Shown: piece after piece, positions 1 through 47,672 of the stretch
Position numbering within the stretch: the first letter of the stretch is position 1
Layout: each line of letters opens with the position of its first letter
From: Candidatus Omnitrophota bacterium
Lineage (GTDB): Bacteria > Omnitrophota > Gorgyraeia > Gygaellales > UBA12090
NCBI GenBank assembly: GCA_030674475.1
Contig: JAUSCZ010000029.1
Coordinates: 2,357-66,356, forward strand
Direction: 5' to 3'
Length of the DNA stretch: 64,000 bases
Translations under genes and position numbers: made by a program
The notes under the pieces: generated by a model
Told to the model about the DNA's origin: nothing
The model's database searches: none
The model's input: only the letters and a program-made list of their open reading frames with translations

Positions 1-92
1 TTTATGGATTATACGAGCAACTGGCCAATAAAAACTTAGATCCGTTATTCTCGATTATTCCGGCGGACGAGGTATTTGCTAACAAGTTTGCT

Positions 93-3000
93 ATGTTTGT
101 GGATAAGGGCTCAATATTACATGAGATGGACATGCTGAGCAAAGAAGAAATTAGATTCTTTGAGGAAGCTGTACAACATTTAGTAAATAGGCGTAAAAGA
201 GAAGAAAATGTATTTATTTTACATTCCTCCGCCTCACCGCTGATTCTTCTCGTGGAAAACGAAGAACATCTTAAGCAGAAGTATGAAGGTTGGCTGGAAT
301 GGCGGGCTCCGAAATCCGTGAGCAGCCCGCTAGGGGAAAATGATGAGAAAATGGGATGTGTTTCTATTTTTCAATTGAGATTAAGGAAGATGCTTGCGGC
401 TGTCGCGACAGGATGGTGGGAATTATTGAATTTTGTGATTTTAATATTAGCGTTGGATATAAGCGGTATATTTATATATTCAGAATTGAAATGTAAATTA
501 GATATGGAAGTAATACTAAGCCAGAGCCGCTTTTATTATAATGGGGATCTGGATGAATCAGCGGTGATAAGTAATTTGACTCCGCCAAGCTCGATACGTG
601 TTTTCCCCTTAGAAATACCGACCAAGGCAAACAGCATTCTATTAGAAAGGCTGCGCGCGGAAAAAAGCGCATTGGAGGAGCAGGCCAGGAAATTAAAGAA
701 TTCAGGAGAGTTTGCGGCAAGGGTGGTCAGAATTCATTCAGGGGCAGGTTGGGGAAGCGGTTTTGTGGTTGATGATATTGACGCTTATTATGTGCTTATA
801 CTTACCTATCATCAGTCATCCAGTCGTTGGATAGCGCTGGGGAACAAGTATAGATGTGAAAGGTATAGTATGGATGTATCATTCGGGAGTAATCTAAAAT
901 ATGAATATATCGGGAAGGCCAATGTTGTTATTGGGCGAGCACCCGAAAAGTACGGTCCTGTGGATAGGAATATGGATGTTGTTATAGCTGTTCTTAAAAC
1001 AGACAAGAAACTCAAACCCTTTAATATTATGGTGGGCCATAAAGGAATTCAGCCTGTGGTATTGGTGGGAGGGTTTAATGACTCTGTCTCGTGCGGGTAT
1101 TCTTTTCATGTGGATGAACAGATAAAAGCATTTGATATGAAGGTTAAAAGGGGAGATTCGGGAGCCCCATACCTAATTAATGAAGGTAATGAGTATCGTC
1201 CTATAGGTGTGAGTTGGTTCGGAGGTTATCTTCCTTCGGCAGCGTGTTTTACTTTGCAGATGAAAGAAGAAATGCTGGAAGCAATTAAGGAAAGACTGCA
1301 TGAAAACGGCAATGCGGGTGAAAATGATTGGCAGCGCAGGGTGATTTCTGAGTGGGCAGACAGATGCAAAAATTCATATTATCTTTACACCACTAATATT
1401 AACGAATTATCCGCGGTTCTTAAGTTTTTAGAAAAATGGGAGCTTTATAGCCGCGCAGAAAGCAGCAGCCCGCTGGGGAAAACCGCTCATCATAATAAGG
1501 GTGTCATTAGAAAATTAATAGAGCAGCAAAAAAATAGGGGTCAGACCTTGAAATGTGAAAATGTGGGATGCTTTTTTGGCTCTCCGGCGATGAGTGAAAA
1601 GGTAAGCCGCGTTGGCGCAGGCAGCCCCGTGGCGTCTTCTGTCCCGCAAACGGCGGACCAGGAAGGTAGAAAGTTGATGTCTTGCCCCGATTCTCTGGAG
1701 GATGCATTCTCACTGCCGGAAGATGTCTGGAAAAAGTATTGGTATCATGGTTCCGCAAGAACAATAGAATTATTAAAGAGTGTTTTGCCTGCAGGAAGGC
1801 GCGGCAAGATGCGAGAGAAAGAGTATCCCGTTAAGCCATTATTGGGGGGATTATATATGGATCCAAAGTCAAAAAAGATGCATTTTCTCCTCCCGCCGGG
1901 CGCGAAATATATTGACATGGGTGGATTGTTATCCGGAAAATCTAAAAAGGAACGCCGTAAGACGGTAGAAAAGTTAGAGGAAAAAGATAGAGCTTTAAAG
2001 AGACAATTAGCGGACGGTCAATTGGAACCCCTCTTTTGTGAGGCAGAAATCAATGGCATAGATGATGAGAATGGGGAAAATCCTCCTGGCATATATACGT
2101 TCGGAGATTTTCAGACGTATAGGAAGCGAGTAATTCCTTTGAAAAAAGTTAAATTTTCTAAAGAGAAAATGGATATTATTGCCGCTTATTTTAGGACGAT
2201 TGAAGGTGAACAGGAGAAGGTTCTGCTTAATGGCGGCACATTAGGATTGGGTGAAGATGTGGAACAGTTTTGTAAAGCAGTGTTTTCGATCGAAAAAGAT
2301 CCGCGCGTGTACCGGAGGGCGGCGACTATTGGGGTCATGCGATTCCTTCAGCGTTTGAAACAGAATCCCGATAATGTGCGTTTGGGAAGCGTTCCCGCGG
2401 TACTTGTTATAGATCCGCAAAAGCTACCCGATATAAAATTAGCTCCTGATAGAACCTATCGCGCCGGCGCATTTTTCCTGACCTACCCTGATGGACGTAT
2501 GGTTGAAGAATTGGGTTCCTCCGCATATAAAATTGTCAAACTTCAACCGGAAGAAGTGAACGATTTATTGTTAAAGTTTTCAGATAGGGTATCCAGATTT
2601 CAGGCATTATGGGAAAGATTAACTCAAACAGTAGAACAGTTCCTGAGTGATAGGGGTCAGACCTTGAAATGTGAAAAGCCAGGGGAAGCGCCGGCTTCCA
2701 GCCCCAAGGGAAAAGGGGACGGTTCTATTTATTTGAGCAGTCCTGTGGGGGGAAATGACTCTGCGCTCTTTTTCGCGTCTAAACAGAGCCTATTATCTTC
2801 TTCGCCGGTTATGTTTGACCCGCAAAAACCATTCAGCAGCCAATTGGGTATGTTGAAAATAATCTGGCAGGCGATTCATGAAAGGAATGAGAATAGGCTG
2901 ATGGCGTTACGGGAAGGGCTTTCGCGGCAGGGAATAAGGAGTTGGCTGATTGAGTATAAAGGTTATTTCCCTGACTGTTTTGAATATTATCCCGGAGCAG

Positions 3001-6000
3001 AAGACGATGTTACTAATGCTGAATCGATTACGAATCCATTCAAAAGTATCGAAATGGATAATGGCGGTCAAGCATTCGCATTGTGTGAAAAGATACGGGA
3101 GGCGGTCTTTTCTATCTCGCGAACATTAGACCAGGGGTATATTTCAGGCATGAATCTGGATGGTATTGTTGAATGCGCGCAACATCTTATTGATAATATT
3201 GAACAGCACGCCGCAGACGGTTACGGCATGATTATGGTTAAGTCAGTTGTTAACTCGCGTAAGAGAGTGGGCATTGAGCTTATACATTTGGACGATGGCA
3301 AGAACTTAGGGTGGTACACGCTTCCTGAAGAAACAAAAAAGTCTGTGACGAGAAAAGAAGGCCCGGGAGGGTACGGATTATTTAAATTTGCGGCCTTTAT
3401 GGATGAGATTGTTATTATATCAAAGCGTAAAGGTGAACCTGCAAAACGATGGGATAGCGCTAATCCGGAGAAAGAAAAAATAATTCGGAGTTTCATATGC
3501 CCGAGCGGGCGGATTACCATAGGTAAGAAGTGGAGTTCGGTTATTAAGCTGCGCCAGGATGGAGAAGAAAAAGATGCTTCAACTTTGGGCAGCAGCCCGC
3601 TGGGGCAAGACAGGAAAATAGAAGTGCCTCCATCTTCGCGGATTATTTTATGGATGCACCCATTATATTCAGAAAGAATATTCCGGGATGAATTAAGAAA
3701 ACATTCGGCAGATAATATAATGAGAAACAAAATAGAACAACTCATCTATAGATATAGTAAATTTCAAGAAGAAACCGCGCGAAATGTTGAAATTTTTGAT
3801 GGTATGAAATTGGTTATAGCGGATAATCATACTAAAAAAGCGGTAAATAATTTCTTGAAGGAGAGAAAAGTGAGTTGTAATTTGTTGACTACGAAATATG
3901 ATACTTTTGAACTGTCAGGATTGATGGGAGACGACTATATTTGTGGCTGGAAAGAACTTATAGATGTCTTAAAGACTTCGAATTATAGAAGTATTATTCT
4001 GGTTGGCGAATATTATGATGGATTGGGAGGATGTGTTGACGCGGAAAAGGCTATACTGGATAAGCATTTTATGGTTTCCGTTAAGAAAGACTTAACTTCT
4101 CCTTTTGGATTTTGTCAATTTGAAAAAACTATTGTTTCATCGCTTGAACCGGACAAGGTATCTTCTTTTCCTGTAGTATATCAGGAAAAAGCTATGGCCG
4201 TCTCTATTCCCGCGGGCAGTCCGTCTCGCCGACAGACAGGCAGCCCGCTTAATAAGAAACCAGAAAAGGCCAGAAACGACATAATTATCCTGCTACAGGC
4301 TTTAAGAAAACAGAATAAAGGCGGCATAGCTGATAGCGAGACAGAATTGCGGTTAAGGATATGGAAAGCAATACTTGATTTTTCCCGCGCTGGCAATGAA
4401 ATAAAGGTGGTGAATAATGAAGAATTATTGCGCAGAAGGGATAAAAAGATTAAAGAAGCAGGCCATATCCTTCTGGAAGGAGTTATTCCCCCAGGCGGAA
4501 TACTCAGAATGCTGGGAAGGAATCTCACCTTCCGGGGTTATAAAAATACACACTATCAGATGGAAATAAAAGAAGGAATCCCTTTAAGAATATTTTTCCT
4601 AAAAGACCATTCGGCTGTGCAGTTTTCTTTAGTCTGGAGCAAATCGAAGGGTAGGTATATTGACTTTTTTCTCCGCACTATCTTTATTAAGCAATTTAAC
4701 AAGCTTAATGAAGATAACAAAGTCCATTATTGCCATTTAGAAGGAACAGGATGGTTTCGCTTGGCAAGAAGGTACTGGATGAAATTTCCTGGTAGTTTCG
4801 GTTATGGGATTGCGGATGTTGTTGATATCCGTAATCCTTCCAAGAGGAAGGCTTTTGTCGCCGGCGCGGTAGCAGTAAATCAGAAAGGGCAAAGTTTTCC
4901 GAAAACACTCTCCTTTATTTATCAGATTCCCCGAAGAAGCACTGCAGAATCTTTTGAGAAAGGAGATTTGTATGATGTGTTTGATACTAAGGTGTATTCC
5001 GCGAAAATTAGAAGAAATTTGAGCTCGTATATTATCAGTGGACATAAGATAAAAGACGGCGGGGGAAAGGTGATAGCGGTATGCAATTATAGGAAGTATA
5101 TCGGATATTTCCCTTATGCTGAAATAGAAATTAAGAAAATAAAAGGAGAATTCCGTTTTATAAGGTTTGTTAAAAATAAGGATGGGCTCCCCATAGTGGA
5201 TAAAAGAAACAACAGCCTAATCATAGACCTTAGAGAAAATACAAAGAAGCAGATAAAAGAGAAGTGTAGTAATGAATTCGCAGAGCAAATCTTAGGGATA
5301 AAACGGACTGAGAATAAAATCGTTGAAGAAAATAAGGGAAAGGAAAAACAAAATATTCCCATAGGTGAGCGTTTTAGAAGCAGGAAACAAGAAATAAAAG
5401 ACAAAATTTCGGAGTATCTTAAAAATCATCCAAATGCGAAGTATCGGGAGATATCGCTTAACACAAAAATTCCGGAAACATTATTAATAAAGTATTTATT
5501 TTATTCTGACACGGAAAAATTAGAAAATGCAAAAGAAGAGTATCTCGATGAAGGCGAAAGTGAAGTAAAATCTTCCGGCAGCAGCCCGCTGGGCTTTGTT
5601 AAAACTGGGCCTTTGCGAATGGGAGGTTTATCAGTTACCTCTAAGGAAAGATATGAGGGGTTCCTTAAGCCTTCTGTTTTCAGCTCTGGGGTGGATGTGG
5701 TCTCAACTGATATAAATTCTGCCGCCGCTTCTTCATTAGAAGGAGACAAAGAAGTAGCATCATCCTCATTTCTCCCCATGGCATTAGTTGAGGGGGGAAT
5801 GAGCGAGGATAAATACAGGGCCTATAAGAAAGGGGCTGTTGAATTTTTGGAAAAGCATATCTTTATCGTTATGGCGGCAGGTATTGAAGTTTTCAAAAAC
5901 TACGATACTGGTTTGGAGACGGTTGAAGCCAGCAGCCCGCTGGATAAGGAGCATTGTTTTAATTATCCGGAGTTCAGGTTCCTGCGCGGGCACAGGAATG

Positions 6001-9000
6001 TAATGCGTATTTCCGATATTTATTTGCCGTTTGAGTTATTCGGCAGGGACGCGGACTCATGGTATTATCCTAGCCTGACGCGATTATTACACCAGAGCCT
6101 GGAGGATGTGTTGTGGGTTGAGGACTTTATCTTAAGATTCTACGGCAGTATAACCTATGATGTGGATGAGGAAGGCAAACCCAGATGGAATGATCTAAGC
6201 GATATCAACGCGACGATTTTACCCGGGGATAAATGGTTGATGGAGGGGGCCATAGATTTACAAAAAGACATAGTGAACAGGTTTGTGGAAATAGCTAAGG
6301 ATTCCAGGCTAAGCGCGGTTCTGCGCCCTTTGCCTGATCCGGACAGCTTGAGAGAGTTAATCAGCGACGACTTCCAATATCCCTGCCTTAAGTTAAATAA
6401 CGGCCGCTATCTGCCGGTTCGGATAGACATTTCTTATCCCTTGGATTCCCTGGTATGGCAGGAAAACCCTTCACAGGTGTATGATTTTTGGGGTTTTTAT
6501 CACGGGAATCAAAAGATGCTTAATACGCTTAATCAGCGGGTGAAGATAATTGAGGTCGGAGCATTGGCCGATCAGGAAGTCAGTCGTTACCAAAAAATAT
6601 TTGAAAGGGCGGTTTCATTTATCACTATAGATAAATTCCTTCCGGTTAAGTCTTTGAAGTTCCTGGCCCAGCTTGCCCGGATGCGGGATTTGACAGGCTT
6701 AAAAGAAGAATTGCTAGCCAAGGTGAGAGATATCTCAATCATAAAGCCTGAAGAGAAGGCTCAAAAGGCAGCCCGCGGGATTTTTTGGAAAAAATACAGT
6801 AGTCTGCTTATACCCCAAGACATCCGGCAGGTAAAGTATGATATTTACGGATGTATTCTGAAAAGGTCTTCTTCGGCTATGGAAGGTGCCGGCAGTCCGC
6901 GGGGGCAAAGCAGGAAAATAGAAGCGTCCCCATTTTCATCCGGCTATATAAAGGCCAGTTCATCTTTGGGGTCATTGATACCTCCGGAGGCAGAAGGCGG
7001 GAATATAAAAGGCAAGATATTGATAGTTGAAGATTCGAAGAATTTACGCGCTTCATTAAGAATGCGCCTTGAAAGTGAAGGATATGATGTTATGGAAGCC
7101 GGGGATGGGAAGGAGGCTTTAGAAAGGCTGGCCGATGAAAAGTTTGACCTTATTATTTCCGACTTTGATATGCCTGGCATGAATGGCATTGAACTTTTAG
7201 CCGAACTTAAGAAAAGGGGAATAACTACTCCTGTGATTATGCGCAGCACAGACGATATAAGGGAAAAGGCGTATGCCGCGGGCGCGAAGGAATTTATATC
7301 TAAACAGCGGCGCGCGAAGGATTTATCAGAAATTATAAATAAGATTTTAAAGGGTAAGGCAGGCAGCCCGCTGGGGGGAGAAAACGGTCGCAGTTCCTAT
7401 TTTGCCTATGCTAAAACTACCGCCGCCTCGCCGCTTATCATAGAAGCGGGCTATCAGATGGTAAAAGGTATGATAAGAGAAGGTGTTTTAAAAGACGGTT
7501 TAAAAATGATTATGGATAGCGAAAGCATGAATAGCATTGCTATTCTCTGGCAAAAAGGTTTTAGAAATAGGTTAACTAATAGGTTAATTGAACATTTTGG
7601 AATTAGGTTATATGCAGTCTACCTTAATCAAGAATTTGCCCAATCTCAAAACCAAAATGTTCAGGAGAGGATGTTCACTAAGGAGGCATTTCAATATTTA
7701 AACGATAGATATAAACAGCGTTTTGAAAGAGTAGTTGTGGTAAGCGAGGATGCGGTAAACTCAACGAAGAGCCATGAAATACTCCATGATGTTTACCATT
7801 TCTTACTGAAGGAAGATAAAAATACTTTAGATTCTTTGGTGGAGAGTATAGCTGCTCATTTTGGGAACGACGTACGGTATTTAGTTGCTTTTAAAGATAT
7901 TTCAAAATACCTTGGTGAATTTCACTATTACTATAATTCTTCTCGTGAAAGACAACAGTTCGTTTATGAGATGCTTTCTGAATTTATTAGTTATTTTTTC
8001 TCAGGAATGTTTTTAGAAATAACGGATAAGCGTTTGATAGAAAAATATTACTACCTACGCGATACTACTCCTGAGGAAGTAAAAAATATATTTGTTGAGC
8101 TTGGTTTTATCTGGCCTTCGGCCATTAATCCCGTTTACGCCGCCTCACCGCTGATTCTTCTCGTGGAAAACGAAGAACATCTTAGGCAGAAGTATAAAGG
8201 TTGGCTGGAATGGCGGGCTCCGATATCCGTGAGCAGCCCGCTGGATGATAATGAACCTATAGATGAAGTGGGGATAAAATCGGACAGCGCGAATAACCCC
8301 AGGATTTCGGCGTTTCATCGGCCAGACTACCCTTCCCTTTTTAAAGCGGATACACAGAAGAGATATTATAGTCTTCTGCGTAAGGCATTGAGTAGTTTAT
8401 TAGATGGGGGATACATTAAATATGAAAATATTGAAGCGCTTTCTTGTGATTTTTATCAGAGAAATCACATAACGAATATTCGCGATCACTTTTGGCCTCC
8501 AGAGAAGAAAGGTAGATTTGCGTTACCGGAAGGCGCTCGTTTAACGGTATTCATCCCTTATTATTTTGGATTTATCAGACCGGAAGATTTTGAAGCTTGG
8601 TGCCGCAGGGATGTGGTCATTTTTATCAAGGCACCGGATGAGATGGTTGAGGAATTAAAAGGATATCGCGCGGAATTTGAAAGAAAATTACCGGAAAGAA
8701 TAGATGAGGACAATGTTTTGATTGAAGGTATGAAAATAAGAAACCTCTATCTATCCGAGAAAAGCCTTGGCAGATTGTTCCTTCTTGTTGATCAGCGGGT
8801 TCAAGAGGCATATGATTTGCTGTATAGCTATGTCTATATGCTGGCTAAAACTTATATCTGGCGCAACCCCGCCTTACAAAACCCCGGGGCAAGAGATGAA
8901 GTATTAGTATCGGTTATGGATATGTTAGACCGCAAAATTAAAAAAGGTAATTTGATTCAAGAGGGAGAAGCTAAGGTTAATAAAGTTATCTTGAATGACA

Positions 9001-12000: not shown

Positions 12001-15000
12001 TAAGACCCGGCTCCATCCTTAAGATGCCGGGCAGCCTGCCCACAGTAACCAATGTAGGTATTAATGATGCAATAGCTGAATTTTTAGCCAATAAATTTAA
12101 TCCCCGCTTTGCCTATGATACTTATTCCAGATTCCTTGAATCTTACGGAGAAGGTGTCTATGGTATTTCCCGCGAGCGATTCACTCATCTTTGGGAAATT
12201 TATGCTTATGAGTCAGGCGTAAGTGATAGAAGCAAGATGAACGTCCGGCAGTTAAAAATACTTTGTGATAGATTCAAGAATCTTATTGTCGGGGAGCTGG
12301 AAATAATGGGGCAGGACAGCGGCGTTCTGGAGAGAGACTTAGCCAATCCTTTAGACCAGCTAAGGAAAGCGCTCAAGGCTGTCTTAAACTCATGGGAAAG
12401 AGAAGACGCGGTTACCTATCGCGCCTGCCACGGCATATCAAATAATTTTTACGCTTCCATTACCGTTCAGGCAATGGTTAATGGAAACTTAGACGCCGAA
12501 TCCGGGGCCGGGGTATTGATTTACCGGAGTGTTGAAGGCAGGATTATTATAACCGGAGAATATAGTTCCAACGCGCAGGGGCCGGACATCGCCGACGGCC
12601 TGATAAGGCCGGGTAAGATACATACGCTTAAAGAAAAAAATCCCCGCGCCTATAACCGGCTGTTAGAGGAAGCCGGGAAATTATCCGCGTGTTACTTTGT
12701 TGACCCTGAAATAGAGTTTACCGTCTCGGGTCAGGGGCAATTATGGTTTTTGCAGGTCAGCAGAGAGGCGCACAGAAAAAGAATTACCTGGAAGAAGCTA
12801 TCAGTGGAAGGACATAAACCGGCCGGCAGGGGAATAGGCGTCTATGGCGGAGGATTGCGCGGAAAAGTAATATTTGACGCCTTAGATATAACATCAATGA
12901 ATGAGGCCGCCCGGAAAGAAGGATTAGACGGGGCGATTATGGTGATGAATTATCCCCTGCCTTCGGATACGGGCTTGATTACCGGAAAGGGCCTTAAGGC
13001 TTTGCTTACCGCCAAAGGCGGTATCGGTTCCCACGGGGCAAGTATTGCCCGGGGCGACGGGATATACGCGATATTAGGCATTGATGAGTTGTTTTTTGAT
13101 GTTATGGCGGGGAAATGGTATCTGGGCGATAAGGAATTAAATAAAGGCGACATCTTAAGCCTGGATGCCCGGGCTGAGAGAGGCTATGTGTATCGGGGAT
13201 TAATTCCCTACGCGTCTGTTTCCTCCGCGATGGTGTATCCTGACGCGCGTGAGGTTATTAAGATAGGAATGACATCTTCGGCGATTTTCTCAAGGCGGGA
13301 AAATAGGCTGGCGCTCAATTTCAACGCGGGTTTGAAAAATACTAAAACCGGCAGCCCGCTGGAGGGAGAGGCTTCTTCTTTAGGCGGTTCGCTGAATCGT
13401 TGGGGGCGCGTTATTTATGAGAAACTATTTTATCCTTCAGACAATAAGGAAGGACAGCAAAGGTTCCGGACAATAGATGATGTTAAAAAGTCGCAAGAGG
13501 AAGACTCGCGGTGGTTAGAATTAAGTATTAAAACGTTGACAGAAGAAAACAGAGAAAAAATTTCAAAGCTATTGCCGGTGATGCGCGAGATTGATTCACT
13601 TGAGAAGGATTTAATCGGGCTTTCGGATGTTCAACTAAAAGCAAAAACAAATGAATTTAAGGCCCGGTTTAAGAATGGGGAAACTCTTGGCCAGCTTCTC
13701 CCTGAAGCTTTCGCGGTGGTCAGGGAGGCGTTCTTGAGGTTAAGCGGAAAGCGGATTTACAGCGTGCAAATGCTTGGGGGGATTGTCATTCATCAGAAAA
13801 AGGTCGCGGAAATTAAAACCGGCGAAGGCAAGACTTTTGTGGCCATGCTTCCGGCTTATTTAAGGGTATTGAGCGGACAAAAAGTCCATATTATTACCCA
13901 TAACCAATATTTGAGCACCAGGGATTTTAAGAAAACCGAATCTCTCTATCAATTCCTGGGAGTAACGGTAAATCTTAGGATTGATAGCCGCAAAAGGAAA
14001 ATCTTAAGTAAAATCTATGAGGCGGAGATCCTGTTTACCACAATAGAAACGGGATTTGATTTAATGAATGGAATTATTCCGTCGTCTCTACTGGCCGGCG
14101 CCTTTGCCATTATTGACGAAGCGGATTATTCCTTAATTGATTTAAATAACAATTCCTTAGTTCTTGTGCGAAAAAAAGGCGACAGCAAAGAATATTTTAA
14201 AGTTATTAAGAAGATATCCGCGAAAATGGAGCAGGGGTCGCATTATAAAATAGAATCAAAGTATCAGGTCTTGTTGACAGAAGCCGGCGTAAAATTTGTT
14301 AATGAATTTTTAGAAAGATTGAATTATCCATGGCTGAAAGGATATGAAGCCCAGACCAGGCTTTTAATTCAAATCTATCTGGCGACAGGTTTGCGTTATC
14401 AAAAAGGGATTGATTATTTGATCCATGGCGGCCAGGTTGTTCCTATTGACGAATTTACGGGGCGCCTTAAAGAAAGGCATCGGTTCGGATTGTATATTCA
14501 TCAACTTATTGAGCTAAGAGAGGGCATTAGGGTTGGGGGAGCTAAGCATGTTTTAACGTTGCCCGCGCCTGTGTTCTTTAATTATTATAAAGAGAAAGGA
14601 GGAATGACCGGCACGATTGATTTTCCCGTAGCGCGCCGTGAATTATCCAGGATTTACGGGATTTCCGACATTGTCGTTATCCCGACAAAATATCCCAGCC
14701 AGAGAATGGATTTACTCCCAAGAGTCTTTTTAGATGAGCGGAAACGAGATTCGAGCTTGGTGAGAAGAATTGAGGAATTGCGCGCGCAAGGAAACCCGGT
14801 TCTTTTGATCACCCAATCCGTGAATGAATCCGAAAGGTTAGAACGCTTATTGAAGGAACAGAAGCTCCCCTGCGAAATTCTTAATGCTGAAAATGAACGT
14901 GAAGAAAATAGAATAATCCACCAGGCAGGAGGCCAGGGGCAAATAACTATTTCAACTAATATGAGTGGCCGCGGAACAGATATTGTAATAGGTGAGCAGG

Positions 15001-18000
15001 TAGCAGAAAAAGGCGGCCTGGCGGTGCTGGTTACATTTAGGAGCGGCATAAGTCCGCGATTAGATTTTCAGGTGATGGGAAGGGCCGCAAGACAAGGTCA
15101 AAAAGGCAGCACGCAGTTTTTCCTTTATTTTGACCACTCGTTATATGGTTTTAAAAAAGCTGATTTCAAAATAAACGCGCAGGGGGATATAGATTTAGAG
15201 CGGCATCCCGATGTTTTGAGGCTTATTGACAATCAGCAAATGTCGGGGGAGGAAGCAATTTCTAAAAATCATCTTACGCAATTTATGCTGGATTATAGCC
15301 TTTATTTGCAAGAAAGATTTAATCACACATTTAAAAATTCGATTATGGATTTTTGTTATCGTTATATTCGTGAAAATGACAGGTTTTATAACGGTGTGTA
15401 TACCTCGGAGGTGTGGGACTCTTTAGAGTCCGCTTGGAGGGGTTTTCTTTATAGAAGACAGATATCTTTAACCTATCTTGATACTCTGATTTATACGAAT
15501 AAGATGTATAAAGAATTCAATGACCGAATGAGTAAGGATTTGGAAAAATCATTGTTTGAAGCAAAGCATATAAAGAAAATTCTGGCTAAAAAAGAGAAAA
15601 TAGATCAAGCATTGAAAAAGGCATGGAAAGAAACGACAGAACAATTTGTAAAGACTGAAGCTCGTATTCTAAAAGATATAGAATTGCCAGATAAGCCGCC
15701 GGATAAAATAAGATTAGAATATCGCTACCGAGAGGTTTCCAGTTCGCTGTGTCTCATCCGAGTATCAACACAAGGGGATTTGAAGCTAAATTCCGCCAGC
15801 CCGCTTGAGGAGGCGGGCCTGTCATTAGAAAAACATTCGGAAAATGGGGACGGTTCTATTTGTTTGAGCAGTCCGCTGGGAAAAGATAGAAAAACAGAAC
15901 CGTCCCGGTTTACGCGTTCACCTTTAGGCAGCAGTCCTCTGGCGGAAAGTGGAAAAAATATAATGGGAAGCTATTTTGATATTAAATTTAGGAATTCTGA
16001 AGAGTTTAGTACGGGGATACCTTTGTATGAAGGCTTTAGTTCCAGGATATCTTTGTCATTGCTTATAATGTGCGTTGCCTTTGCTTCTATAGCCATTTCT
16101 ATGATAAAGTTATCTTTTTTGTCTCTGCAAACATTAAGTTTAGTCCTGGGTTTTACTGCAATCGCCCTTAGCTTGATAACGGTTATTAATTCTTCAATAG
16201 TTAAAGGATCAACTTTTAATCTTTTCCTCTTGAAGACTTCCTTGATCTCTTCAATGAGCCTGTCAGAAATTATTAATGTGAATTTGCCTTCTTTAAAGGC
16301 ATGGTATATAGCTAAATTAGCGGGACTTTTAAGCAGGCAGGAGATGAAGATGTTGGTGTCAATGACCGCTTTTATATCGTGCATATACCTTTTTCCGGGA
16401 TATTTGGCATATCCTGTTTATTTCTTCCTCGGAGGGTATGCTTTTTATTTGGCCGCGTATATTATTTACCACATTATCCAGTCTTCTGGCCCAGGTAGTC
16501 TTTTCAAGCTTTCGCACCAATTGTATCTTTTTCTCAATAGGAAGTTTACCGATAAGCTTTTCTATATCAATAGTGGCAGTAATAGACATTTTATCTCCCT
16601 TTCTACTATAAAGCATACTATACTTTCAGTTATAAGTCAAGAATTTAGGGTGAAGCGCGGCACTTCTAACTTAACCGCTGCGGAAAAATGGGACGCTCAT
16701 ATTTTTGCCGGCAGCCCACTGGGGGAAAAGGAAAAAACGGCTGCTGCCCTTATTATTCAAATTATTTGCTCGGCATCCCCTGTATTTACATGTATCAGCG
16801 AAGGAAAGGAATATACTTATGGACAGCTTGTTGCCGGAACACTACTGGAAAATTATTTTAGTCATATTCACTGTTTGGGGGAGGAAAGCGGCTTTCCCCT
16901 TATTGTAGCTGACGGCCCTTCGGGAATAGGTAAAGGTATGTTGAAGCTTATGAAAGAATTTCTCGCGCGGTTACAGCTTGATATGTGTTATTGGCCTTTA
17001 GATATGTTTTTTATTGAGAGAGATAAACGTTACAAAATTATTAATGATGTGGTGGATGGTGTGATTCAAGGTGAAGATTATGATGAGGTGGGTTTTTGGA
17101 ATATGGCAGAAATTAAACGAGTCTTGAGCCGTAATAATGATTTCAAGAAATCAGGCAAGATGACAGAGAAGCTTTTTATACCAAAAGCATGGGATACAAT
17201 AAAGAAAGAATACCGGCCAAAAACAATAGTGTTAAAAAAGAAAAGCGTAGATGTTGTTGATTGGAAATATTCACATAAAGAAGAATTGCAAGCATATTAC
17301 GGTGATAATCCATTTCGTATACGTTTTATTGAAGATGAAGAAACGGTAAGAAAAAAGTATTATTCAAGAGAGCTTAAAACCCGCGGCCCGGGAAAAGATT
17401 TGGAAAGGCTTATGGCAGCTTACGATAAGTTGTTTGTGCCAAGTTATAAGCGGTATGTTCATCAATTAGGCGATAGATTTCCCATTTGTTTAGTAGATTT
17501 TTCTGATGATGAAGATTGCATTGCTTCTGACGGGTTCTCAAAGAAAGGGCGATCCCGGCCTTTTCAAGAAAAGGAGGCCGCTTTATATGCCGTCAACCCG
17601 ACCGTGGATGAGGCCGACAGCCCGGTGGGGGGAAATGATTCCGACTCATTTTCTAGTTCTCCAATGGATAGTAGCGATGATAGAGAAAAGATTAAAGAGG
17701 CAATCTCTGTGCTTAAATCAAGCAAAGGATACGGAATTCGCCTGGGGGCTTGTTTAAAAATTAAAGAAATAATAGAAAATAACCTATCTTTAGATGTGGA
17801 AGAATATTTTGATGACCTTTTAGGGCTTATGCTCGGCACAATAAGGGATAACGATGGTTCAAAGTCAACAGATGAAGTGTTTAGTGGCGTATGCGATATA
17901 ATTGGTTTATCTTTAAAAAGGAAAAAAAGCCTTGCCAATGAAGAGCGGATGGAAAAAATATTTAAGGTAGTTGATAATATAAGAGATTACGAATTTGGTT

Positions 18001-21000
18001 TTTCAAGGCTGTTAGGGCTTATCAGTAGTTTTATAATAAATAGTAAAATTTTTTCCGCAGAAACACAACAACCCGGAAAATCATTGGCCAAGCCGGTCTA
18101 TTATCAAAAAATCCTTACTATGGAATTTTCTTACGGACTAACGTTTACTCAATACGGCCTGACCAGGCTTGATATTTTTAACGCGGCAAATGAATTTATC
18201 CGTGCCAATCCTTTACTTGCTGAATATGAGGTTGATGCCCTGCGGCGAATTCTTCTTGATAGTGAATACTTTTTGAGCACGGCTATTGAAGATAGAGGTG
18301 TTATTGAACGCGCGTTACAAGCCACAATTGATATGACGTTAAAAATGATTGATTGTATCTCTGTAGTAATGTCATGTAACACTACATTCGTGAACAGGGA
18401 AATGATTGCGCCTATTCAATCTTTGCTCAGTAGCAGGCAGAAAATAATCAGGCTGTATGCCTTTAAAATAGTTCTGATTAATGCTGGCCAGTTAAATAAT
18501 CCACAGCTTTCTTTAGGAAAAATTATCCAAGAGACAGTTAAAAACCTGTCCGCGTATGGAATTAGCGTGGATAAAGCGATGTTCATTAAATTGTTAACCT
18601 TTATCTGGAGTCATCGTTTTGATGGTTTCAGTTTAGCTTCTTGGAGTATTTTATTGTCTTGTATATTAAAAAATGCTTCCCGGGAAAAGCAAGTTAAAGG
18701 ATTTTGGGGCGCTGTTCATAAATTCATAAACTGTTTTTCAAGAGAAGATACCAAAAATGTTTTAGCAGAGAATAAACATACGGATAATATTAATCGGATA
18801 GTCAGGATTTTGCGCTGGATAGACAAGCTTCATAAGCAATATCCTTCTATGGGCGCGGAAATACATTATTTTACAAAAGAAAGCGATATCTCCGAAAGAG
18901 AAAAAAACATATTCTTTGCCCAGTTCCTTGCGTTAACCCCAGGTCATAATTCTATACATCCTTATGAATATATTAAGGAAGCTGACTTTTTAGATATACG
19001 CGTTATGCCGGGGAGCTGGCCGGTTTTCTTTAGGCTGTGGAAAGAATTAAGTAGTTACGGTTTATTTGAACCCCTTAAGGATGATTATCCGCCGGCGGCG
19101 TATCACAGCTGTCTTAAGGGAGATTTTGGCCCGGATGTCCATAATTTTATTATCTCAAACACATTTTTAAATTGGCCTACTTTTTCTTCATTTGTCAGTA
19201 TCGACTACACTACAGGAAAAGACAGCGCGGAATTTGCTTTCGGGCAGGCCTATAATTATGTTGGCGTAACAATAAATGAATTGAGCGGCCTGATTGAATA
19301 TAGTTCTTCCCAGACCAATATTTTTGATTCATTTATAAAAACTTGTCATAAATTTAACGATACCCAAGGTAATCTTATTGGACAATATGATAGTTACCCG
19401 AGTTTTAACGATATTCCGAGAAAAGCTTTGTTGGCAATCGCCTTTTGCTCGCGAGACGAAAGATTGCAAAAAGTAAAAATAAAAGTTAAGGATATTATTT
19501 TTGATTGGCTGATTATGATAGGTATGCCCTTGGAATATATTGAAGGGTTACGTGATGAAGTATGGAGGGATGAGGGCGGAGGTATTACTACGACCCGTCC
19601 CCAATTAGCAAAGACATTAGAAAAAATAAAAGAAGTTATTGTCCTGCGGCAGGCCCAGCGGTATCTGGAAAGAGTGGACGATGATGCTAAGAAAGAATTG
19701 CAGGGATATATTAGCGTGAATGACATATTAGGGGCGGCGGGCATTCTGGATAAGATAAGACAAAGGGAGATTATCTATAAAGTTACCAGTTACACCCATC
19801 TTAATTTATGCGATCTCTCCGCGGAGGGCCTGAGAGGGGTGATTAACGAATTTAAGAAAAATCCCTTGAGCCCTGATTTAAAAGACTTAGAAAATAAAAT
19901 GGAAGCTGTCTTTAGGGAGATAAAAGGCATCATTTATACACCTTTAGAGGAAAAGATTATAGGATTATTTATTGATAACAGTTATCCTTTGGAGTCTGTC
20001 CCGGAGATTATTGACGATGTTCTGATAAAGGCTTTATCCGGCGGCACAAATGAAGAGGCAAAAACCCTTATAAACGAAATAGGCGGCCAGAAAGCTCAAG
20101 AAGCGCTTAAAGACATTAAAAAATCCTCCAGCCCGCTGGAGGAGGAGGAACTGCGCGAATTGCTCTCCGGCATTATCAGCTGTATAAACAACCCCTCACA
20201 AGCAGGATTAACCGGTTCCGTGGATAGTCTTTGTGAGTTTCTGCTGAAGCTGCCGTTGGGTGCTCTTAGAGAAAACCGTTTTTATAATTGTCTTCTTCAA
20301 GCCTTAAAGGGCGCGGTAAGCAAAACAGATTTAGGCGCTTTAAAGAATGATATATTAAAGCTGATTAATAACGCGATAGCGGTAAAGCTTAAATCTCTTC
20401 CCAGCGATTCAAACGAATATCAGCGCTATACGGAGACGCTTTTTTATCTGACTCTGCCGTATGTCAAAAAGGCGCTCAAGATGGGACAGATAAGGCTTTC
20501 GGATGATTTATTGGGAGAATTTTATCCCATCCTGTTATTATCTATTGACGGTTATGATGAGAGGAAAGGGGGAAATTTTCCCGCGTATTATAGTGATAGA
20601 CTTAAGAACGACGTGAACCAGCGAAGATTCGATACTTTTGCTTACGCGCGAGGTTCAGGAGAGGAGTATAGCGGAGAAGAATCTTGTTTTGAAACAGCCG
20701 CCGCTGAAAAAGCCAATAAAGAATACGTAAGCGCCGCGCGCGAAGAAGGAGCGGTTTGGGCTGCTAGCAAAAAAGAGATTGACGGCATAACGGATGAATT
20801 GTGGGAACAAATTAAGGGAGGAATAAAAGTTGTCTTGGCTTTAGGGGAAGAAAGAGTATCTCGTTTTGACAGCGGGTTATTAGAAAATTATTATAAACGG
20901 ATAAATGAATTTCGTGATGAAAATAAGATATTGCGCTGGAAAAAGCTAACGGAAGAATACCCGGGTTTGAGAGGTTTATATCGCGTTAAAGACCATTTTA

Positions 21001-22244
21001 TCAGGCCGCTGTATACTTTACTTATCCTATGGACGGCTTATATGGACGGGATTGCTAAAAGCCAGAGGGCGACCGCCAAAAGATTAGGCCTGTCAAGCCG
21101 GATGATAAATATCTATCTGAATAGGGATATCCGGCCTTTGTTGATGAGTAAGATAGCGGATATAGATATCAATTCTGCCAATAAGCAATTGAGGGATAAG
21201 AACAAAGAGAAAAGAAGCGGATTACAGATAATCAAGGATTATATCAACGGTAAATCCAGAAGTATTAATTTACCGTTGATTGGTGGCGCGCCCAGGAGCG
21301 GCATATCATTCTGCGGCCTGCGCGTGTATTTACCTGTATCTATAATCAAAACAAACAAAAAGTTTGAGGCTGTTATAAGAAGGCGCGCAAGAAAAAAACA
21401 TGGAAAACGGGTTTTTGTGATTACTCTTTACGCTGCCGGTTCTAAAAAGGAAAAGCTGGGCCATTGTCTTTGTCGTAATGTCAAAGGGAAATTAATGAGT
21501 TTAAACGCAAAGAGGTATGTAAATTTGACTCTAGACATAGAGAGAACAACAAAAGAGATATACATAAATTTCTTCATAAAGCTTAGAAAGAGAATAATTT
21601 CAATGCCTCCGGTTGAAGCTATGGAAGCGCGAACCTATAAAACGGGCAGCTTTTATTTGAAGGGGTTAGGTTTTGTCTCTTTGAATCTATCGCGTCATAA
21701 TTACAACTTTGCTATTATTGGCGTTAATGAAACATCCGTCATCGCTGAATTTGACAGCTTAGATCGTCCAGGCCATAAGGAATGGAAGATGTTTTCCGGC
21801 AGAGGTATGGATAAAAGTGTTGCTTGCCGGTGGGGCATAGCCGTGATAGAGGAGAGAATGAACGCGTTAATGTTTTATCCTAATAATAACAAACAGCAGG
21901 CGATATCTTTTACCTTAACCCCGGCCTACCGAAAGTCGCGTGAATTGAAAAAAGAAATCAGCCCGCCTGCTCGCCTCGCGGCCCTCGGCTTCGCCGAGAG
22001 GCGAGCGAAGCCGAGGGCCGGCGAGGCAGGCAGCCCGCTTATTGTCCGGGGTGTGGGTTGTTGCGTGCGCACGGGGGTTAGTACGGAAGAAAAATGCGGT
22101 TGGGGTAACTTTATGGAAGTTGAGGATTTTAGGGCTGGAATGATTTATCCGGCAGTAGACAAAAGCTATAAGAATATTTTTGGGCCAAAAGCAGCAGTAT
22201 TATTTTCTCATTCTACGCGGGTATTCTGCCGCGGGCCGCCATGA
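93..22244 (+). CDS. Giant multidomain ORF (at least 7383 aa; 5' partial, frame open back to window position 3). It is a chimera-like string of protease, receiver, sigma-r4-like, PanB, PEP-utilising, SecA-like and P-loop domains joined by repeated SPLG-encoding GC-rich linkers. It may be a polyprotein, a repeat-mediated gene fusion, or an assembly artefact.
   Basis: The ORF track gives one uninterrupted frame of 22152 nt. Checked by hand, frame 0 has no stop from nt 3 to 93, so the ORF continues upstream of the window. Domain motifs read directly from the translation are GDSGAP, KILIVED...[24 protein letters not shown], GEGKT...IIDEAD...GMTGT and VGDSL...VKIEGG...[15 protein letters not shown]. 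Other genes in the window end with TAA, TAG and TGA, so the standard code applies. A stop-free stretch of this length cannot arise by chance in roughly 42% GC DNA. Confidence 0.5.
   Translation: [7383 protein letters not shown]
229..334 (+). repeat. Copy 1 of a 106-bp near-identical direct repeat encoding [34 protein letters not shown]. Its 3' end carries the SPLG core.
   Basis: ccgcctcaccgctgattcttctcgtggaaaacgaagaacatcttaagcagaagtatgaaggttggctggaatggcgggctccgaaatccgtgagcagcccgctagg. It recurs at 8140-8245 with about 6 mismatches. Confidence 0.85.
712..1245 (+). other. Trypsin-like (S1/chymotrypsin-fold) serine protease domain inside the giant ORF. A predicted N-terminal transmembrane helix lies at about 390-470.
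   Basis: The motifs occur in His-Asp-Ser order: GSGFVV...ILTYHQ (His region), [10 protein letters not shown] (Asp region), then RGDSGAPYL (catalytic Ser motif, nt about 1153-1170) and IGVSWFGG. The preceding hydrophobic stretch is [31 protein letters not shown]. Confidence 0.55.
2715..2752 (+). repeat. GC-rich linker repeat, subfamily C ([13 protein letters not shown]).
   Basis: ggggacggttctatttatttgagcagtcctgtgggggg pairs with 15846-15882. The adjacent motif ggggggaaatgactc also recurs at about 17631-17650, and ggggtcagaccttgaaatgtgaaaa recurs at 1536-1562 and 2652-2678. Confidence 0.65.
3588..3640 (+). repeat. GC-rich linker repeat, subfamily B (SPLG + [11 protein letters not shown]).
   Basis: ggcagcagcccgctggggcaagacaggaaaatagaagtgcctccatcttc is paralogous to 6891-6945. 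Confidence 0.7.
6891..6945 (+). repeat. GC-rich linker repeat, subfamily B, second copy (SPRG + [12 protein letters not shown]).
   Basis: ggcagtccgcgggggcaaagcaggaaaatagaagcgtccccattttcatc. Confidence 0.7.
7014..7310 (+). other. CheY-like response-regulator receiver domain inside the giant ORF. It has no adjacent output domain.
   Basis: [67 protein letters not shown]...TPVIM...GAKEFISK. The acidic pocket, the phospho-accepting Asp in ISDFDMPG, and the conserved Thr and Lys positions are all present. Confidence 0.75.
8140..8245 (+). repeat. Copy 2 of the 106-bp direct repeat, 7.9 kb downstream of copy 1, in the same frame and orientation.
   Basis: Direct comparison with 229-334. Differences are aggcag/aagcag, tataaa/tatgaa, gatatc/gaaatc and ctggat/ctaggg. 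Confidence 0.85.
9261..9420 (+). other. Sigma-70 region-4-like helix-turn-helix inside the giant ORF.
   Basis: [50 protein letters not shown] resembles the sigma-70 r4 consensus (L..RER.V...RFGL......TL.E.G..FGVTRERIRQIE.KALRKLR). I did not recognise regions 2 or 3, so confidence is low. Confidence 0.3.
9540..10340 (+). other. Full-length PanB (3-methyl-2-oxobutanoate hydroxymethyltransferase) homolog embedded in the giant ORF. It starts with its own Met directly after an SPLGAG linker.
   Basis: [47 protein letters not shown]...VKIEGG...[10 protein letters not shown]...[14 protein letters not shown]...[24 protein letters not shown]...[14 protein letters not shown] aligns along its whole length with E. 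coli PanB (TAYDY...VGDSLGMT...VKIEGG...CGHLGLTPQS...LEAAGAQLLVLECVP...[24 protein letters not shown]...ESGVYPGEEHSF). Confidence 0.75.
11680..13212 (+). other. N-terminal ATP-grasp and phosphohistidine domains of a PEP-utilising enzyme (pyruvate phosphate dikinase / PEP synthase-like). The C-terminal PEP-binding TIM barrel is not apparent.
   Basis: [26 protein letters not shown] matches the PPDK N-terminal GGKGANLAEM...P.GF motif. [20 protein letters not shown] (about 13005-13060) matches the mobile phosphohistidine domain motif (GGxTSHAAIIAR.G.P). Confidence 0.6.
13556..15140 (+). other. Divergent SecA-like preprotein-translocase ATPase motor inside the giant ORF, comprising NBD1, the preprotein cross-linking domain and NBD2. 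Helical-scaffold-like sequence continues to about 15700.
   Basis: [37 protein letters not shown]...[54 protein letters not shown]...[11 protein letters not shown]...[28 protein letters not shown]...GMTGT...[11 protein letters not shown]...[14 protein letters not shown] is collinear with the canonical SecA N-terminus and both RecA-like domains. Several motifs are degenerate (IIDEAD in place of DEVD-IL), which suggests a paralogue. Confidence 0.65.
15846..15882 (+). repeat. GC-rich linker repeat, subfamily C, second copy ([13 protein letters not shown]). It sits in a cluster of three SPL cores at 15790-15935.
   Basis: ggggacggttctatttgtttgagcagtccgctgggaa. Confidence 0.65.
15971..16384 (-). 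CDS. PIN-domain protein, VapC-like putative toxin of a toxin-antitoxin pair (137 aa). It lies antisense inside the giant ORF frame.
   Basis: MHDIKAVIDTNIFISCLL...LIISDRLIEEIKEVF...DKKDNFIIEMAIEAKATHIISNDKDI shows the canonical PIN acidic residues (D-T-N..., E, D, NDKD). It is an intact 137-aa ORF preceded by a small overlapping ORF. Confidence 0.8.
   Translation of the reverse strand: MHDIKAVIDTNIFISCLLKSPANLAIYHAFKEGKFTLIISDRLIEEIKEVFKRKRLKVDPLTIEELITVIKLRAIAVKPRTKLNVCRDKKDNFIIEMAIEAKATHIISNDKDILELKPSYKGIPVLNSSEFLNLISK
16359..16616 (-). CDS. Putative cognate antitoxin (85 aa, or 75 aa from the second Met). It overlaps the PIN gene by 26 nt.
   Basis: A small upstream ORF overlapping the toxin gene is the typical type II toxin-antitoxin layout. 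I did not recognise a specific fold. Confidence 0.45.
   Translation of the reverse strand: MLYSRKGDKMSITATIDIEKLIGKLPIEKKIQLVRKLEKTTWARRLDNVVNNIRGQIKSIPSEEEINRICQISRKKVYARYKSGH
21962..22040 (+). repeat. GC-rich imperfect palindrome (about 26-bp arms) fused to the last SPL core, located near the 3' end of the giant ORF.
   Basis: gcctgctcgcctcgcggccctcggcttcg / cgaagccgagggccggcgaggcaggc are reverse complements with a few mismatches. A shuffled half-copy occurs in-frame in the outer-membrane gene at 33884-33910. Confidence 0.7.
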
Positions 22245-22353: not shown

Positions 22354-22725
22354 ATGGAAATGGAAAGATTGTTTGAGCGCCGGGTATTTGAGAGGATTAA
22401 CGCGGATTTCAGCGGATGGTACGCGTTAAAAGATGAGGGCGGCCAGATTCAGGGTGAGTTCTGGGGGCTTGATTTTAGCGGAAGCGGAGTCAGGGTCCAT
22501 TCTGTTAAAGAGATTGCTGAAGATAAAGTTTTAGAGGTGAGTATAACCTCATCAACCCTAAGTCAGCCGATACAGGAAACAGCCCGGGTGGCCTGGCAAA
22601 GGAGGATTGAGCCTGGTTTGTGGCAGGCAGGATTAAAGTTTTACCAGCCCAGGCTGATGCATTTTTGGCCGCTGGTAGAGTTAAAACAACACGAGATAGG
22701 GCAGTCAGGCGAAAGCGCGGGTTAA
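22354..22725 (+). CDS. PilZ-domain protein (c-di-GMP-binding family).
   Basis: The N-terminal RRVFER..., DFSGSGVRV and a type-1 PilZ beta-barrel-like remainder. The start is placed after the GGGGGAGG RBS; the ORF track starts at 22342. Confidence 0.55.
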   Translation: MEMERLFERRVFERINADFSGWYALKDEGGQIQGEFWGLDFSGSGVRVHSVKEIAEDKVLEVSITSSTLSQPIQETARVAWQRRIEPGLWQAGLKFYQPRLMHFWPLVELKQHEIGQSGESAG

Positions 22726-22791
22726 TGACCAACACCCAAACAAATGCTTTACGCTTACGATCTTGAATTTTAACACGAGAGGGGGTGCCAG

Positions 22792-23178
22792 ATGAGAATT
22801 GAAGAAAACAGAAAGTTCGCGCGTTGGAATATCAGTCGTCCGGTGCGCTTTAGCCTGGCGGGTAAAGATAATGAGGAGGAGAAAATGGCCCTGCTTAAGG
22901 ATATCAGCTTCGCCGGGGCCCGGATGTCTCTCTTTGAAAGCCTGCGCCTGAATGATAAGCTGGATATGTTTTTGGAGATTCCGGATGAAGAACACGCCAT
23001 ACACTGCGAAGGAAAAGTAGTGTGGCAAAAGTCGCTTGAGGATATGAGTTCTCCACCATTCGCCTGCGGTTTGTCTTTTACCAGGATAAAAGACCAGGAT
23101 AAAGAAAAAATGTTTAAATATATGAGTCAGAACGCCACCGATGAAGTAAAGAAGAAATGGTGGGAAGGGGTAAAATAA
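22792..23178 (+). CDS. PilZ-domain protein, a second paralogue.
   Basis: RKFARW...DISFAGARMSL matches the RxxxR...D.S.GG PilZ signature. A GAGAGGGGG RBS precedes the ATG. Confidence 0.6.
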   Translation: MRIEENRKFARWNISRPVRFSLAGKDNEEEKMALLKDISFAGARMSLFESLRLNDKLDMFLEIPDEEHAIHCEGKVVWQKSLEDMSSPPFACGLSFTRIKDQDKEKMFKYMSQNATDEVKKKWWEGVK

Positions 23179-46886: not shown

Positions 46887-46944
46887 GGACACATCCCAAT
46901 TTTCTCCCTACTTAATAAAATGAAAATTGGGATGTGTCCCTATT
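46885..46944 (+). repeat. Perfect 21-bp-arm hairpin (TAGGGACACATCCCAATTTTC ... GAAAATTGGGATGTGTCCCTA) directly after the apgM stop codon. REP-like.
   Basis: The arms are exact reverse complements with a 17-nt spacer. The arm core GGGATGTGTCCC recurs at 47657-47668 inside the 3' end of the RAYT gene. Confidence 0.8.
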
Positions 46945-47671: not shown

Positions 47672-47672
47672 A
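46986..47672 (+). CDS. REP-associated tyrosine transposase (RAYT; IS200/IS605-like Y1 HUH transposase).
   Basis: The HUH motif is MDNHVHLLL and the catalytic tyrosine motif is EYKWSSAG (the RAYT Y.WSS signature). It is 228 aa. Confidence 0.8.
   Translation: MPRIARVVVADYPHHIIQRGNNRQMVFFDDTDRQLYLKLLRKYSLECGCRIKAYCLMDNHVHLLLVPLESESLAKTMQKLSLTFTQYINKKYKRTGRLWECRFHSCLVDKETYLWAVSKYIERNPVRSGIAVYPQEYKWSSAGISTALNYLDSWIEPVWKDYLGSREEYIKFLNQLESEKEVEGIQKAVFSGKPIGTEQFIERMYKQAGINIAIRSVGRPRKENGMCP

Follow-up and report, generated by a model that had tools for sequence, protein, structure and literature searches.

A short S-S-P-(L/V/I) peptide marks module boundaries and breakpoints in a giant Omnitrophota open reading frame that carries a chymotrypsin-fold protease

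Introduction

Bacteria of the phylum Omnitrophota carry giant open reading frames (ORFs) that combine divergent SecA DEAD domains, transmembrane segments, CheY receivers and peptidases, some of them forming 'multi-enzyme metabolic clusters' (10.1101/2023.11.21.568195; 10.64898/2026.06.07.730766; PMC10066038), and that reach about 147,000 amino acids (aa) in recent reports. The papers on these giants consider C39 and S8 peptidases and leave it unknown whether, or where, the products are cleaved (West-Roberts et al. 2023; Seymour et al. 2023; 2026 preprint), and the lack of known cleavage points has blocked structure-based annotation. Here we analyse a 64,000-nucleotide (nt) stretch of contig JAUSCZ010000029.1 (assembly GCA_030674475.1, Candidatus Omnitrophota bacterium), hereafter the window, which opens with one such ORF. 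An earlier note, made from the letters alone, had reported a family of GC-rich, in-frame repeats in this ORF. We find that the repeats encode a peptide, S-S-P-(L/V/I), at the boundaries of protein-sized modules (written M1, M3 and so on), and that module M1 is a chymotrypsin-fold protease; the note had recognised neither this protease nor the gene as an Omnitrophota giant. No junction motif is given in the papers on Omnitrophota giants, and 'cleav', 'linker' and 'motif' are absent from the 2026 preprint (10.64898/2026.06.07.730766). The class of giant ORF is known; the junction, its protease and the junction-bounded exchange of modules appear to be undescribed in the papers searched.

Viral polyproteins, such as those cut by picornavirus or calicivirus 3C and 3C-like, astrovirus and hepatitis C virus (HCV) NS3 proteases, likewise hold many units the size of mature proteins in one ORF, with an embedded PA-clan protease between its own sites and a short consensus at every boundary; the profile and structural model of M1 match 3C-like, astrovirus and NS3 proteases. 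The window differs in that its gene lies on a cellular chromosome and is far longer, its protease has a serine nucleophile, its consensus is S-S-P-(L/V/I), its modules are metabolic, regulatory or secretion-type proteins, and its processing is predicted. Among bacteria, we take the closest analogy to be the MARTX (multifunctional autoprocessing repeats-in-toxin) proteins of Vibrio. These are very large proteins in which modules lie between linkers that are cut after Leu by an internal protease, and whose module repertoires vary from strain to strain through recombination. MARTX proteins have a C80 cysteine protease activated by inositol hexakisphosphate (InsP6), RTX repeats and host-directed effector modules; neither the C80 domain nor RTX repeats have a Pfam match in the window giant. 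The best sequence match to the M1 profile is SplD of Staphylococcus aureus. The Spl proteases share the fold of M1, and SplD is narrowly specific in a way that recalls the junction, taking Pro/Leu at P2 and Thr/Leu/Ile/Val at P1. Spl enzymes differ in being small secreted virulence proteases outside polyproteins, and their identity to M1 is only about 15-18%.

Results and Discussion

The motif keeps to one strand and frame of the giant ORF

The gene in question is the following:

1..22244, + strand: giant ORF of the multi-enzyme polyprotein type; open frame whose best relatives are Candidatus Omnitrophica/Omnitrophota

Its frame is open from window base 3 to 22244, with the stop codon at 22242-22244 and the 5′ end beyond the window edge. 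The ORF listing gives 93..22244 (7,383 aa), and the full open frame in the window exceeds 7,400 aa; in the relative L005 the giant ORF extends at least 640 aa further upstream. Therefore, the gene is cut by the window edge, and position 93, where it had been taken to start, lies within it.

Allowing up to 3 mismatches, the 15-mer GGCAGCCCGCTGGGG matches the window 18 times, where 1.06 matches would be expected. Of these, 17 fall within 321-20141, every one on the + strand and 16 of them in the ORF reading frame. The off-frame copy at 6767-6781 (GGCAGCCCGCGGGAT, 3 mismatches) is 124 nt upstream of a degenerate junction at 6891 and could be chance or a relic. The core AGCCCGCT has 13 copies, all in one phase, and one reverse-complement copy at 7445; it was found on neither strand of 22245-64000. 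At the protein level, the coding frame of the giant ORF contains 14 sites of the form [SGA]SPL[GEDA]. The minus strand has none, nor has any of the six frames of the other 42 kb (22245-64000). The relaxed form [SGA]SP[LVI] occurs 23 times in the giant ORF against 0.96 in composition-matched shuffles, and is absent from the 31 other window ORFs (12,472 aa in total). Motif density is 6.3 per 10 kb in the one frame of the giant ORF against 0.19 per 10 kb, over six frames, in control loci. Counted by strand and frame over the 64-kb window, the repeat family of the earlier note is real, holds to one orientation and frame, and has no member outside the giant ORF. Its list of positions needs small corrections: '5593' marks where the copy 5580-5594 ends, '15917' should read 15930, and the copy at 17616, read as (S/G)SPL(G/D/E), encodes DSPVG instead.

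Sites fall between modules

The junctions are:

321..335, +: VSSPLG, upstream boundary of the protease module; the L089 homology block starts here
1464..1478, +: SSSPLG, downstream boundary of the protease module; the L089 block ends here; left partner of the L005 junction
3591..3605, +: GSSPLG, heading linker sub-families D4-D6
5580..5594, +: GSSPLG
5931..5945, +: ASSPLD
6891..6905, +: degenerate junction AGSPRG, upstream of the receiver module
7362..7376, +: AGSPLG, directly after the receiver domain
8232..8246, +: VSSPLD, start of module M10; right partner of the L005 junction
9519..9533, +: SGSPLG, ~10 aa before PanB; kept at the orthologous boundary in L003
13350..13364, +: TGSPLE, between the PanB-PPDK module and the SecA-like module
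15795..15944, +: three-junction cluster after the SecA-like module (ASPLE 15795, SSPLG 15867, SSPLA 15930); L002 and L007 blocks end here
16710..16724, +: AGSPLG, after the transmembrane module
20127..20141, +: SSSPLE, start of module M16; L002 and L007 homology blocks start here
22029..22043, +: AGSPLI, before a 66-aa C-terminal piece; same ending in L089

That the motif marks module boundaries is well supported. The sites flank Pfam domains, with AGSPRG and AGSPLG bracketing the receiver and others bordering PanB, PPDK and SecA, and the site-to-site spacing of 200-1,300 aa is the size of whole proteins. Moreover, the 29 residues around the sites are hydrophilic, hydrophobic residues being depleted, and their disorder-promoting fraction is 0.68 against 0.563±0.023, a value exceeded by none of 2000 random sets. 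Domain edges and hydrophilic surroundings both agree with the earlier suggestion of linkers.

Some copies are extended into longer repeats, and all three pairs described previously were found, at 83-93% identity: 3592-3637 with 6892-6937 (83%), 2708-2749 with 15839-15880 (88%), and the following two units of family D3.

224..343, +: extended linker unit, copy 1 (ASPLI...SSPL, 35 aa), 93% identical to 8135-8254
8135..8254, +: extended linker unit, copy 2

The 35-aa unit, ASPLILLVENEEHL.QKY.GWLEWRAP.SVSSPL, has a motif variant at either end, and its two copies immediately precede M1 and M10 respectively; it may be a linker that was duplicated or a small peptide that is released. A perfect 28-nt repeat (1534-1561 and 2650-2677) encodes RGQTLKCE, both copies lying shortly upstream of degenerate junction sites. 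At four sites (296-360, 8207-8271, 9494-9558 and 15770-15834) the motif can form a 7-9 bp hairpin with a nearby GCGGGC complement; all four belong to two duplicated linker sub-families, and the eight further sites tested lack a complement of this kind.

Module M1 is a divergent chymotrypsin-fold protease

Module M1 (aa 78-461) is bounded by two sites, contains GDSGAP, and carries these features:

654..1304, +: chymotrypsin-fold serine protease domain, within M1 (333-1463); identified by catalytic triad, profile, AlphaFold2 (AF2) and Foldseek
810-812, 975-977 and 1158-1160, +: catalytic codons for His, Asp and Ser; triad invariant in the alignment

An exhaustive HMMER scan recovered 13 remote relatives of M1 beyond two close homologues, and all remote relatives with a source name are Omnitrophota. 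In a 10-sequence family alignment His53, Asp108 and G-D-S169-G-x-P are invariant, with the His-Asp-Ser order and the Ser placed in G-D-S-G. Against PDB sequences the family profile matches SplD (3.5e-5), SplB, calicivirus 3C-like proteases (1.3e-4) and V8 protease (2e-3). The AF2 model built from the 10-member alignment has a predicted local distance difference test (pLDDT) score of 82.8 and a predicted template modelling (pTM) score of 0.84; with 3 sequences the pLDDT was 35. Foldseek returned 593 PDB matches to the model at E<=0.001, and each of the best 50 is a chymotrypsin-fold serine protease or a complex that includes one; among the matches listed are HtrA/DegQ/DegS, SplA/B/E, astrovirus protease, HCV NS3 and trypsins. 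By profile and predicted structure, the M1 family belongs to the PA-clan serine peptidases, and its sub-threshold or absent Pfam matches mark it as a divergent, unclassified branch.

SplD has the strict consensus R-(Y/W)-(P/L)-(T/L/I/V), with cleavage before S (PMC3793935). It shares with the junction, S-S-P-(L/V/I)-x, an arrangement of Pro followed by an aliphatic residue, and by this analogy suggests that any cleavage at the junction would fall after L/V/I.

The motif accompanies the protease in other giants

Co-occurrence was assessed in seven long ORFs (>2,700 aa) with an M1-family protease, from independent genomes and metagenomes. In six of the seven the motif [SGA]SP[LVI] is enriched 16- to 36-fold:

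Window ORF: 23 observed, 0.96 expected
L089: 14 observed, 0.73 expected
P0133 / L087: 21 observed, 0.58 expected
P0141 / L088: 6 observed, 0.37 expected
L094: 13 observed, 0.60 expected
L100: 17 observed, 0.69 expected

Sites stand on both sides of the protease module in each of these six motif-rich giants, the upstream ones 194-384 aa before the catalytic Ser and the downstream ones 73-219 aa after it. Ten short M1-family proteins (247-1,174 aa) have no junction site, their single match being the catalytic GDSGSPI itself. Co-occurrence of the motif with a dedicated chymotrypsin-fold protease is well supported.

Homology breaks at the junctions

Relatives differ in which modules they contain and in the order of these modules. 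Module M1 of L089 is 86% identical to that of the window; the homology is confined to the stretch between the junctions (window aa 78-461; sites at 77 and 458), and the modules flanking it on either side bear no relation to those of the window. In L005, M1 is joined directly to M10 in contiguous sequence, 6.8 kb being skipped, and the two homology blocks overlap by 13 nt, the overlap being the motif itself. The PanB-PPDK module M11 is 74% identical in L003, where it follows the SecA module that it precedes in the window; in each of the two loci a junction stands at either end of it. L002 (long-read) and L007 (a clean short-read metagenome-assembled genome, MAG) show further module orders, L007 containing one 6,478-aa open frame with two SecA-like modules. 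Of the 28 ends of homology blocks, 17 are no more than 25 aa from a site; chance predicts 4.2, and none of 10,000 permutations gave more than 13. The coincidence of motif sites with rearrangement breakpoints is well supported, and these block ends, together with the L005 overlap, bear out a previously proposed association with recombination.

Locus P0133 is the positional orthologue of the window gene by its PilZ-PilZ-ABC-GH2 synteny (ATP-binding cassette transporter; glycoside hydrolase family 2), and the two ORFs have only the protease (28% identity) and the receiver (28%) in common. On this gene order and alignment, the locus is conserved while its modules turn over.

The SecA-like modules of L007 (Omnitrophica bacterium GWA2_41_15), at 7053-9467 and 16890-19196, are 83% and 57% identical to that of the window. 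The giant gene of L003 (ERZ1286166 contig_3503, 1-24023) encodes the coenzyme A (CoA) enzymes PanB, CoaC, CoaB, a CoaD-like domain and two CoaE domains, an entire cofactor pathway, it appears, in one ORF; its further modules are NAPRTase, NUDIX, DnaJ, methyltransferase and SecA-like.

The peptide is kept while its codons differ

Within the window clade the sites are uniform in codon choice (Ser AGY 33/35, Pro CCG 30/35, Leu CTG 28/35), and far more so than conserved Ser, Pro and Leu residues elsewhere: in the modules that L003 has in common with the window (75% aa identity), such residues have the same codon in only 35-51% of cases. Information content of the aligned sites is limited to ~18 nt. 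Between lineages the codons form distinct dialects: AGC AGC CCG CTG in the window, L002, L003, L007 and L089; mostly TCC TCG CCG STG (CTG/GTG) in L087; TCC AGT CCG GTT in L088; and AGC TCG CCG GTR in L094 and L100. No dialect follows its local background codon usage. The peptide is kept as codons switch among lineages, which argues that the long-term constraint acts on the peptide rather than the DNA; selection of the motif as a peptide is well supported by these alignments. The DNA repeat, put forward earlier as the conserved unit, is thus uniform within a lineage, and it is the peptide S-S-P-(L/V/I) that is kept over distance.

Lineage-specific nucleotide identity indicates a by-product of concerted evolution, probably by gene conversion or repeated copying of junctions, and the extended linker sub-families inside the window agree with this. 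Both observations favour the duplication or gene conversion that had been invoked for the high DNA identity between copies.

A polyprotein reading and its rivals

We consider it probable that the repeats are inter-module junctions of a polyprotein, presumably cut by the embedded protease, and that they double as in-frame breakpoints for module shuffling. The functional unit would be the peptide (S/G/A)-S-P-(L/V/I), set in a short hydrophilic linker between enzyme-sized modules and recognised by the M1 protease encoded in the same ORF. By analogy with SplD, cutting would occur after Leu/Val/Ile with Pro at P2; we infer both the position of the scissile bond and the responsible enzyme on this basis. 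The protease would free itself first at its two flanking sites, and the other modules (receiver, PanB-PPDK, SecA-like ATPase, membrane module and modules of no assigned function) would be released next. Meanwhile, the near-identical 15-18 nt at all junctions of one lineage would offer a substrate for recombination between copies, which would delete, duplicate or transfer whole modules with the reading frame preserved, and the same recombination would keep junction DNA homogeneous. In this scheme recombination would proceed through the motif, rather than being merely tolerated there. Of the possibilities raised in the earlier note, a recognition site is the best reading, and cleavage at these sites by M1 is what it would predict; 'designed' linkers do not fit, as natural relatives from several metagenomes share the architecture.

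Several observations weigh against this polyprotein reading. L098 (ERZ795059 NODE-1430), an open frame of at least 5,999 aa at 35% GC, has the protease and no motif site, and a search of it for an alternative enriched short peptide found none; the distant SecA-type giant fragments P0004 and P0005 are also without the motif. The protease co-occurrence count leaves out the partial loci L002, L003 and L007. The window M1 has no Pfam match at E<=1, and the M1 relatives score 21.8-23.1 bits for Trypsin_2 (PF13365), below the gathering cut-off of 27.6. As to shuffling, the L005 junction comes from a scaffolded short-read MAG, where a chimeric join is possible, and 13-18 nt of shared sequence is short for RecA-dependent recombination. 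Block ends could also fall at junctions via selection for viable in-frame products, with no part played by a recombination mechanism.

The main rival holds that the giant stays one chain, with the motif an uncleaved flexible linker or a docking or modification motif (S-P could, for example, be a phosphorylation, glycosylation or partner-binding site) and the protease acting elsewhere. The sites are indeed hydrophilic linkers, published work leaves the cutting of giant proteins open, and L098 pairs a protease with no motif. However, an uncleaved linker has no need for an invariant S-P-aliphatic core across lineages in which every codon has changed, and it leaves the protease co-occurrence and the bracketing in six giants unexplained; we regard it as unlikely, and as deserving more weight than the alternatives that follow. 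Another possibility is that the signal is in the DNA, as a site-specific recombination site, Chi-like hotspot or cassette attachment site, the peptide being merely its translation. Codon choice at the sites is far stricter than selection on the protein would demand, modules that have been rearranged meet within the motif, and GCTGGAGG presumably resembles known Chi sequences. Against this, nucleotides differ between lineages while the peptide is kept (Ser switching between AGY and TCN, Leu to Val), no recombinase or integrase adjoins the ORF, there is no inverted-repeat architecture, and the only transposase-like gene is a sub-threshold ORF 25 kb away that resembles RAYT genes (REP-associated tyrosine transposases; REP, repetitive extragenic palindromic). 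We find a DNA signal very unlikely. A universal one is ruled out by the differing codon dialects, and an integron or site-specific cassette system by the lack of an integrase near the ORF and by conserved DNA that spans ~18 nt and is lineage-dependent.

A signal in RNA or translation that lets modules be expressed separately, such as a site at which ribosomes bind internally, restart or pause or at which an RNase processes the transcript, would draw on the purine-rich GGRGG that often follows CTG, the Shine-Dalgarno-like run that precedes an in-frame ATG at 9519, and the hairpins at some sites. Yet the next in-frame start comes a median of 13.5 codons after sites against 12.6 at random positions, folding z-scores span +1.3 to -2.3 and the sites have no structure in common, there is no Rfam match, and the GGRGG tail is absent from other dialects; promoter-like sites number 50 against 46±7 expected by chance. 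To this explanation we give very little credence. Internal promoters (counts at chance level), internal translation starts (not enriched after sites) and a shared RNA structure or known RNA family (none found) were each rejected. Finally, the copies might be mobile elements inserted in frame, of REP, MITE (miniature inverted-repeat transposable element) or RPE (Rickettsia palindromic element) type, as they are GC-rich and repeated and a RAYT-like gene lies in the window. No copy occurs outside the giant ORF, all share one orientation and frame, the information is confined to ~18 nt with no consistent palindrome, and other lineages use different DNA, so that we think this scarcely credible. Location, orientation, frame and the lack of a shared hairpin likewise uphold the doubt previously cast on MITE- or REP-like insertion.

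With a protease built into the same protein, the sites are the first definite candidates for places at which giant bacterial proteins of this kind might be cut. The defined consensus and candidate protease make the question of giant-protein cleavage directly testable, including as a protease-substrate pair in E. coli, and the consensus predicts exact neo-N-termini for metaproteomes and shows where giant proteins can rationally be divided before their structures are predicted. Junction-bounded cassette exchange would explain the fast turnover of modules at a conserved chromosomal position. A broader proposal is that giant ORFs represent a bacterial form of virus-like expression, 'operons without stop codons' whose polyproteins are cut at S-S-P-(L/V/I) by a built-in, lineage-specific chymotrypsin-like protease and whose modules are exchanged as cassettes, with the junction codons as in-frame points of recombination; this is quite possible, and we stop short of calling it probable. 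It would mean that a free-living or episymbiotic phylum uses a virus-like strategy for cellular proteins, with a bacterial counterpart of exon shuffling that would explain the poor conservation of giant ORFs between genomes.

Other modules of the giant ORF

Beyond the protease, the following modules could be assigned:

7017..7337, +: response-regulator receiver domain, module M8 (PF00072, E=2.9e-26)
9552..13172, +: module M11, comprising PanB (9552-10319), a region without assignment, PPDK_N (11727-12644) and PEP-utilizers (12927-13172) by Pfam; the match to L003 described above
13536..14999, +: giant-type SecA-like ATPase with DEAD, preprotein-binding and P-loop domains (PF07517, PF01043, PF21090)
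16047..16406, +: hydrophobic (transmembrane) segments of module M13, by hydrophobicity

The PanB match is to a ketopantoate hydroxymethyltransferase domain, and hydrophobic helices lie at aa 101-132 and aa 5319-5568. The SecA-like module lacks the scaffold/wing (PF07516) and SEC-C (PF02810) domains that are present in every canonical SecA match. Most of the remaining modules are dark: PDB sequence searches with M3, M5, M10 and M14 gave nothing meaningful, and Pfam at E<=1 gave weak hints only, HATPase_c_2 in M3 and Sigma70_r4 in M10.

By its sequence features, the window gene is a member of the published class of Omnitrophota giant ORFs. It is a single ORF of more than 20 kb in an Omnitrophota genome, tiled with mutually unrelated Pfam families (receiver, PanB, PPDK_N, PEP-utilizers and SecA domains). 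Its SecA part is of the divergent kind, with DEAD, preprotein-binding and P-loop domains but no scaffold/wing, and the ORF also encodes transmembrane segments, a CheY-type receiver and a protease domain, as the published giants do. A word-indexed homology search with M11 gave just 6 matches, none of them giant, and the searched database seems to hold few intact giants of the window clade. A scan of genome contigs with the SecA module returned mostly canonical SecA genes; L007 alone was useful, and the other 79 loci served as negative controls.

Neighbouring genes

The rest of the 64-kb window is ordinary bacterial chromosome. Two small PilZ-domain genes lie directly 3′ of the giant ORF in the window (22360-23178), in L002 (16749-17496) and in L087 (11427-12189), and the order giant ORF, PilZ, PilZ, sugar ABC transporter, GH2 is kept even in a distant genome with different giant-ORF modules. 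The RAYT-like ORF at 46986-47672 (Y1/IS200-like transposase) scores 71.7 bits against an NCBIfam cut-off of 80, and no REP-like repeats were found around it. Just upstream, at 46929-46954, a 26-nt element, GGGATGTGTCCCTATTTTTCTATTGA, overlaps a TTGACA-type box and recurs with 3 mismatches at 353-378 in the giant ORF, immediately after the first junction (chance expectation 0). Lastly, a gene at 42006-45536 encodes NrdJ, a B12-dependent ribonucleotide reductase, in which a segment at aa ~322-643 matches models of intein-containing proteins and is probably an intein.

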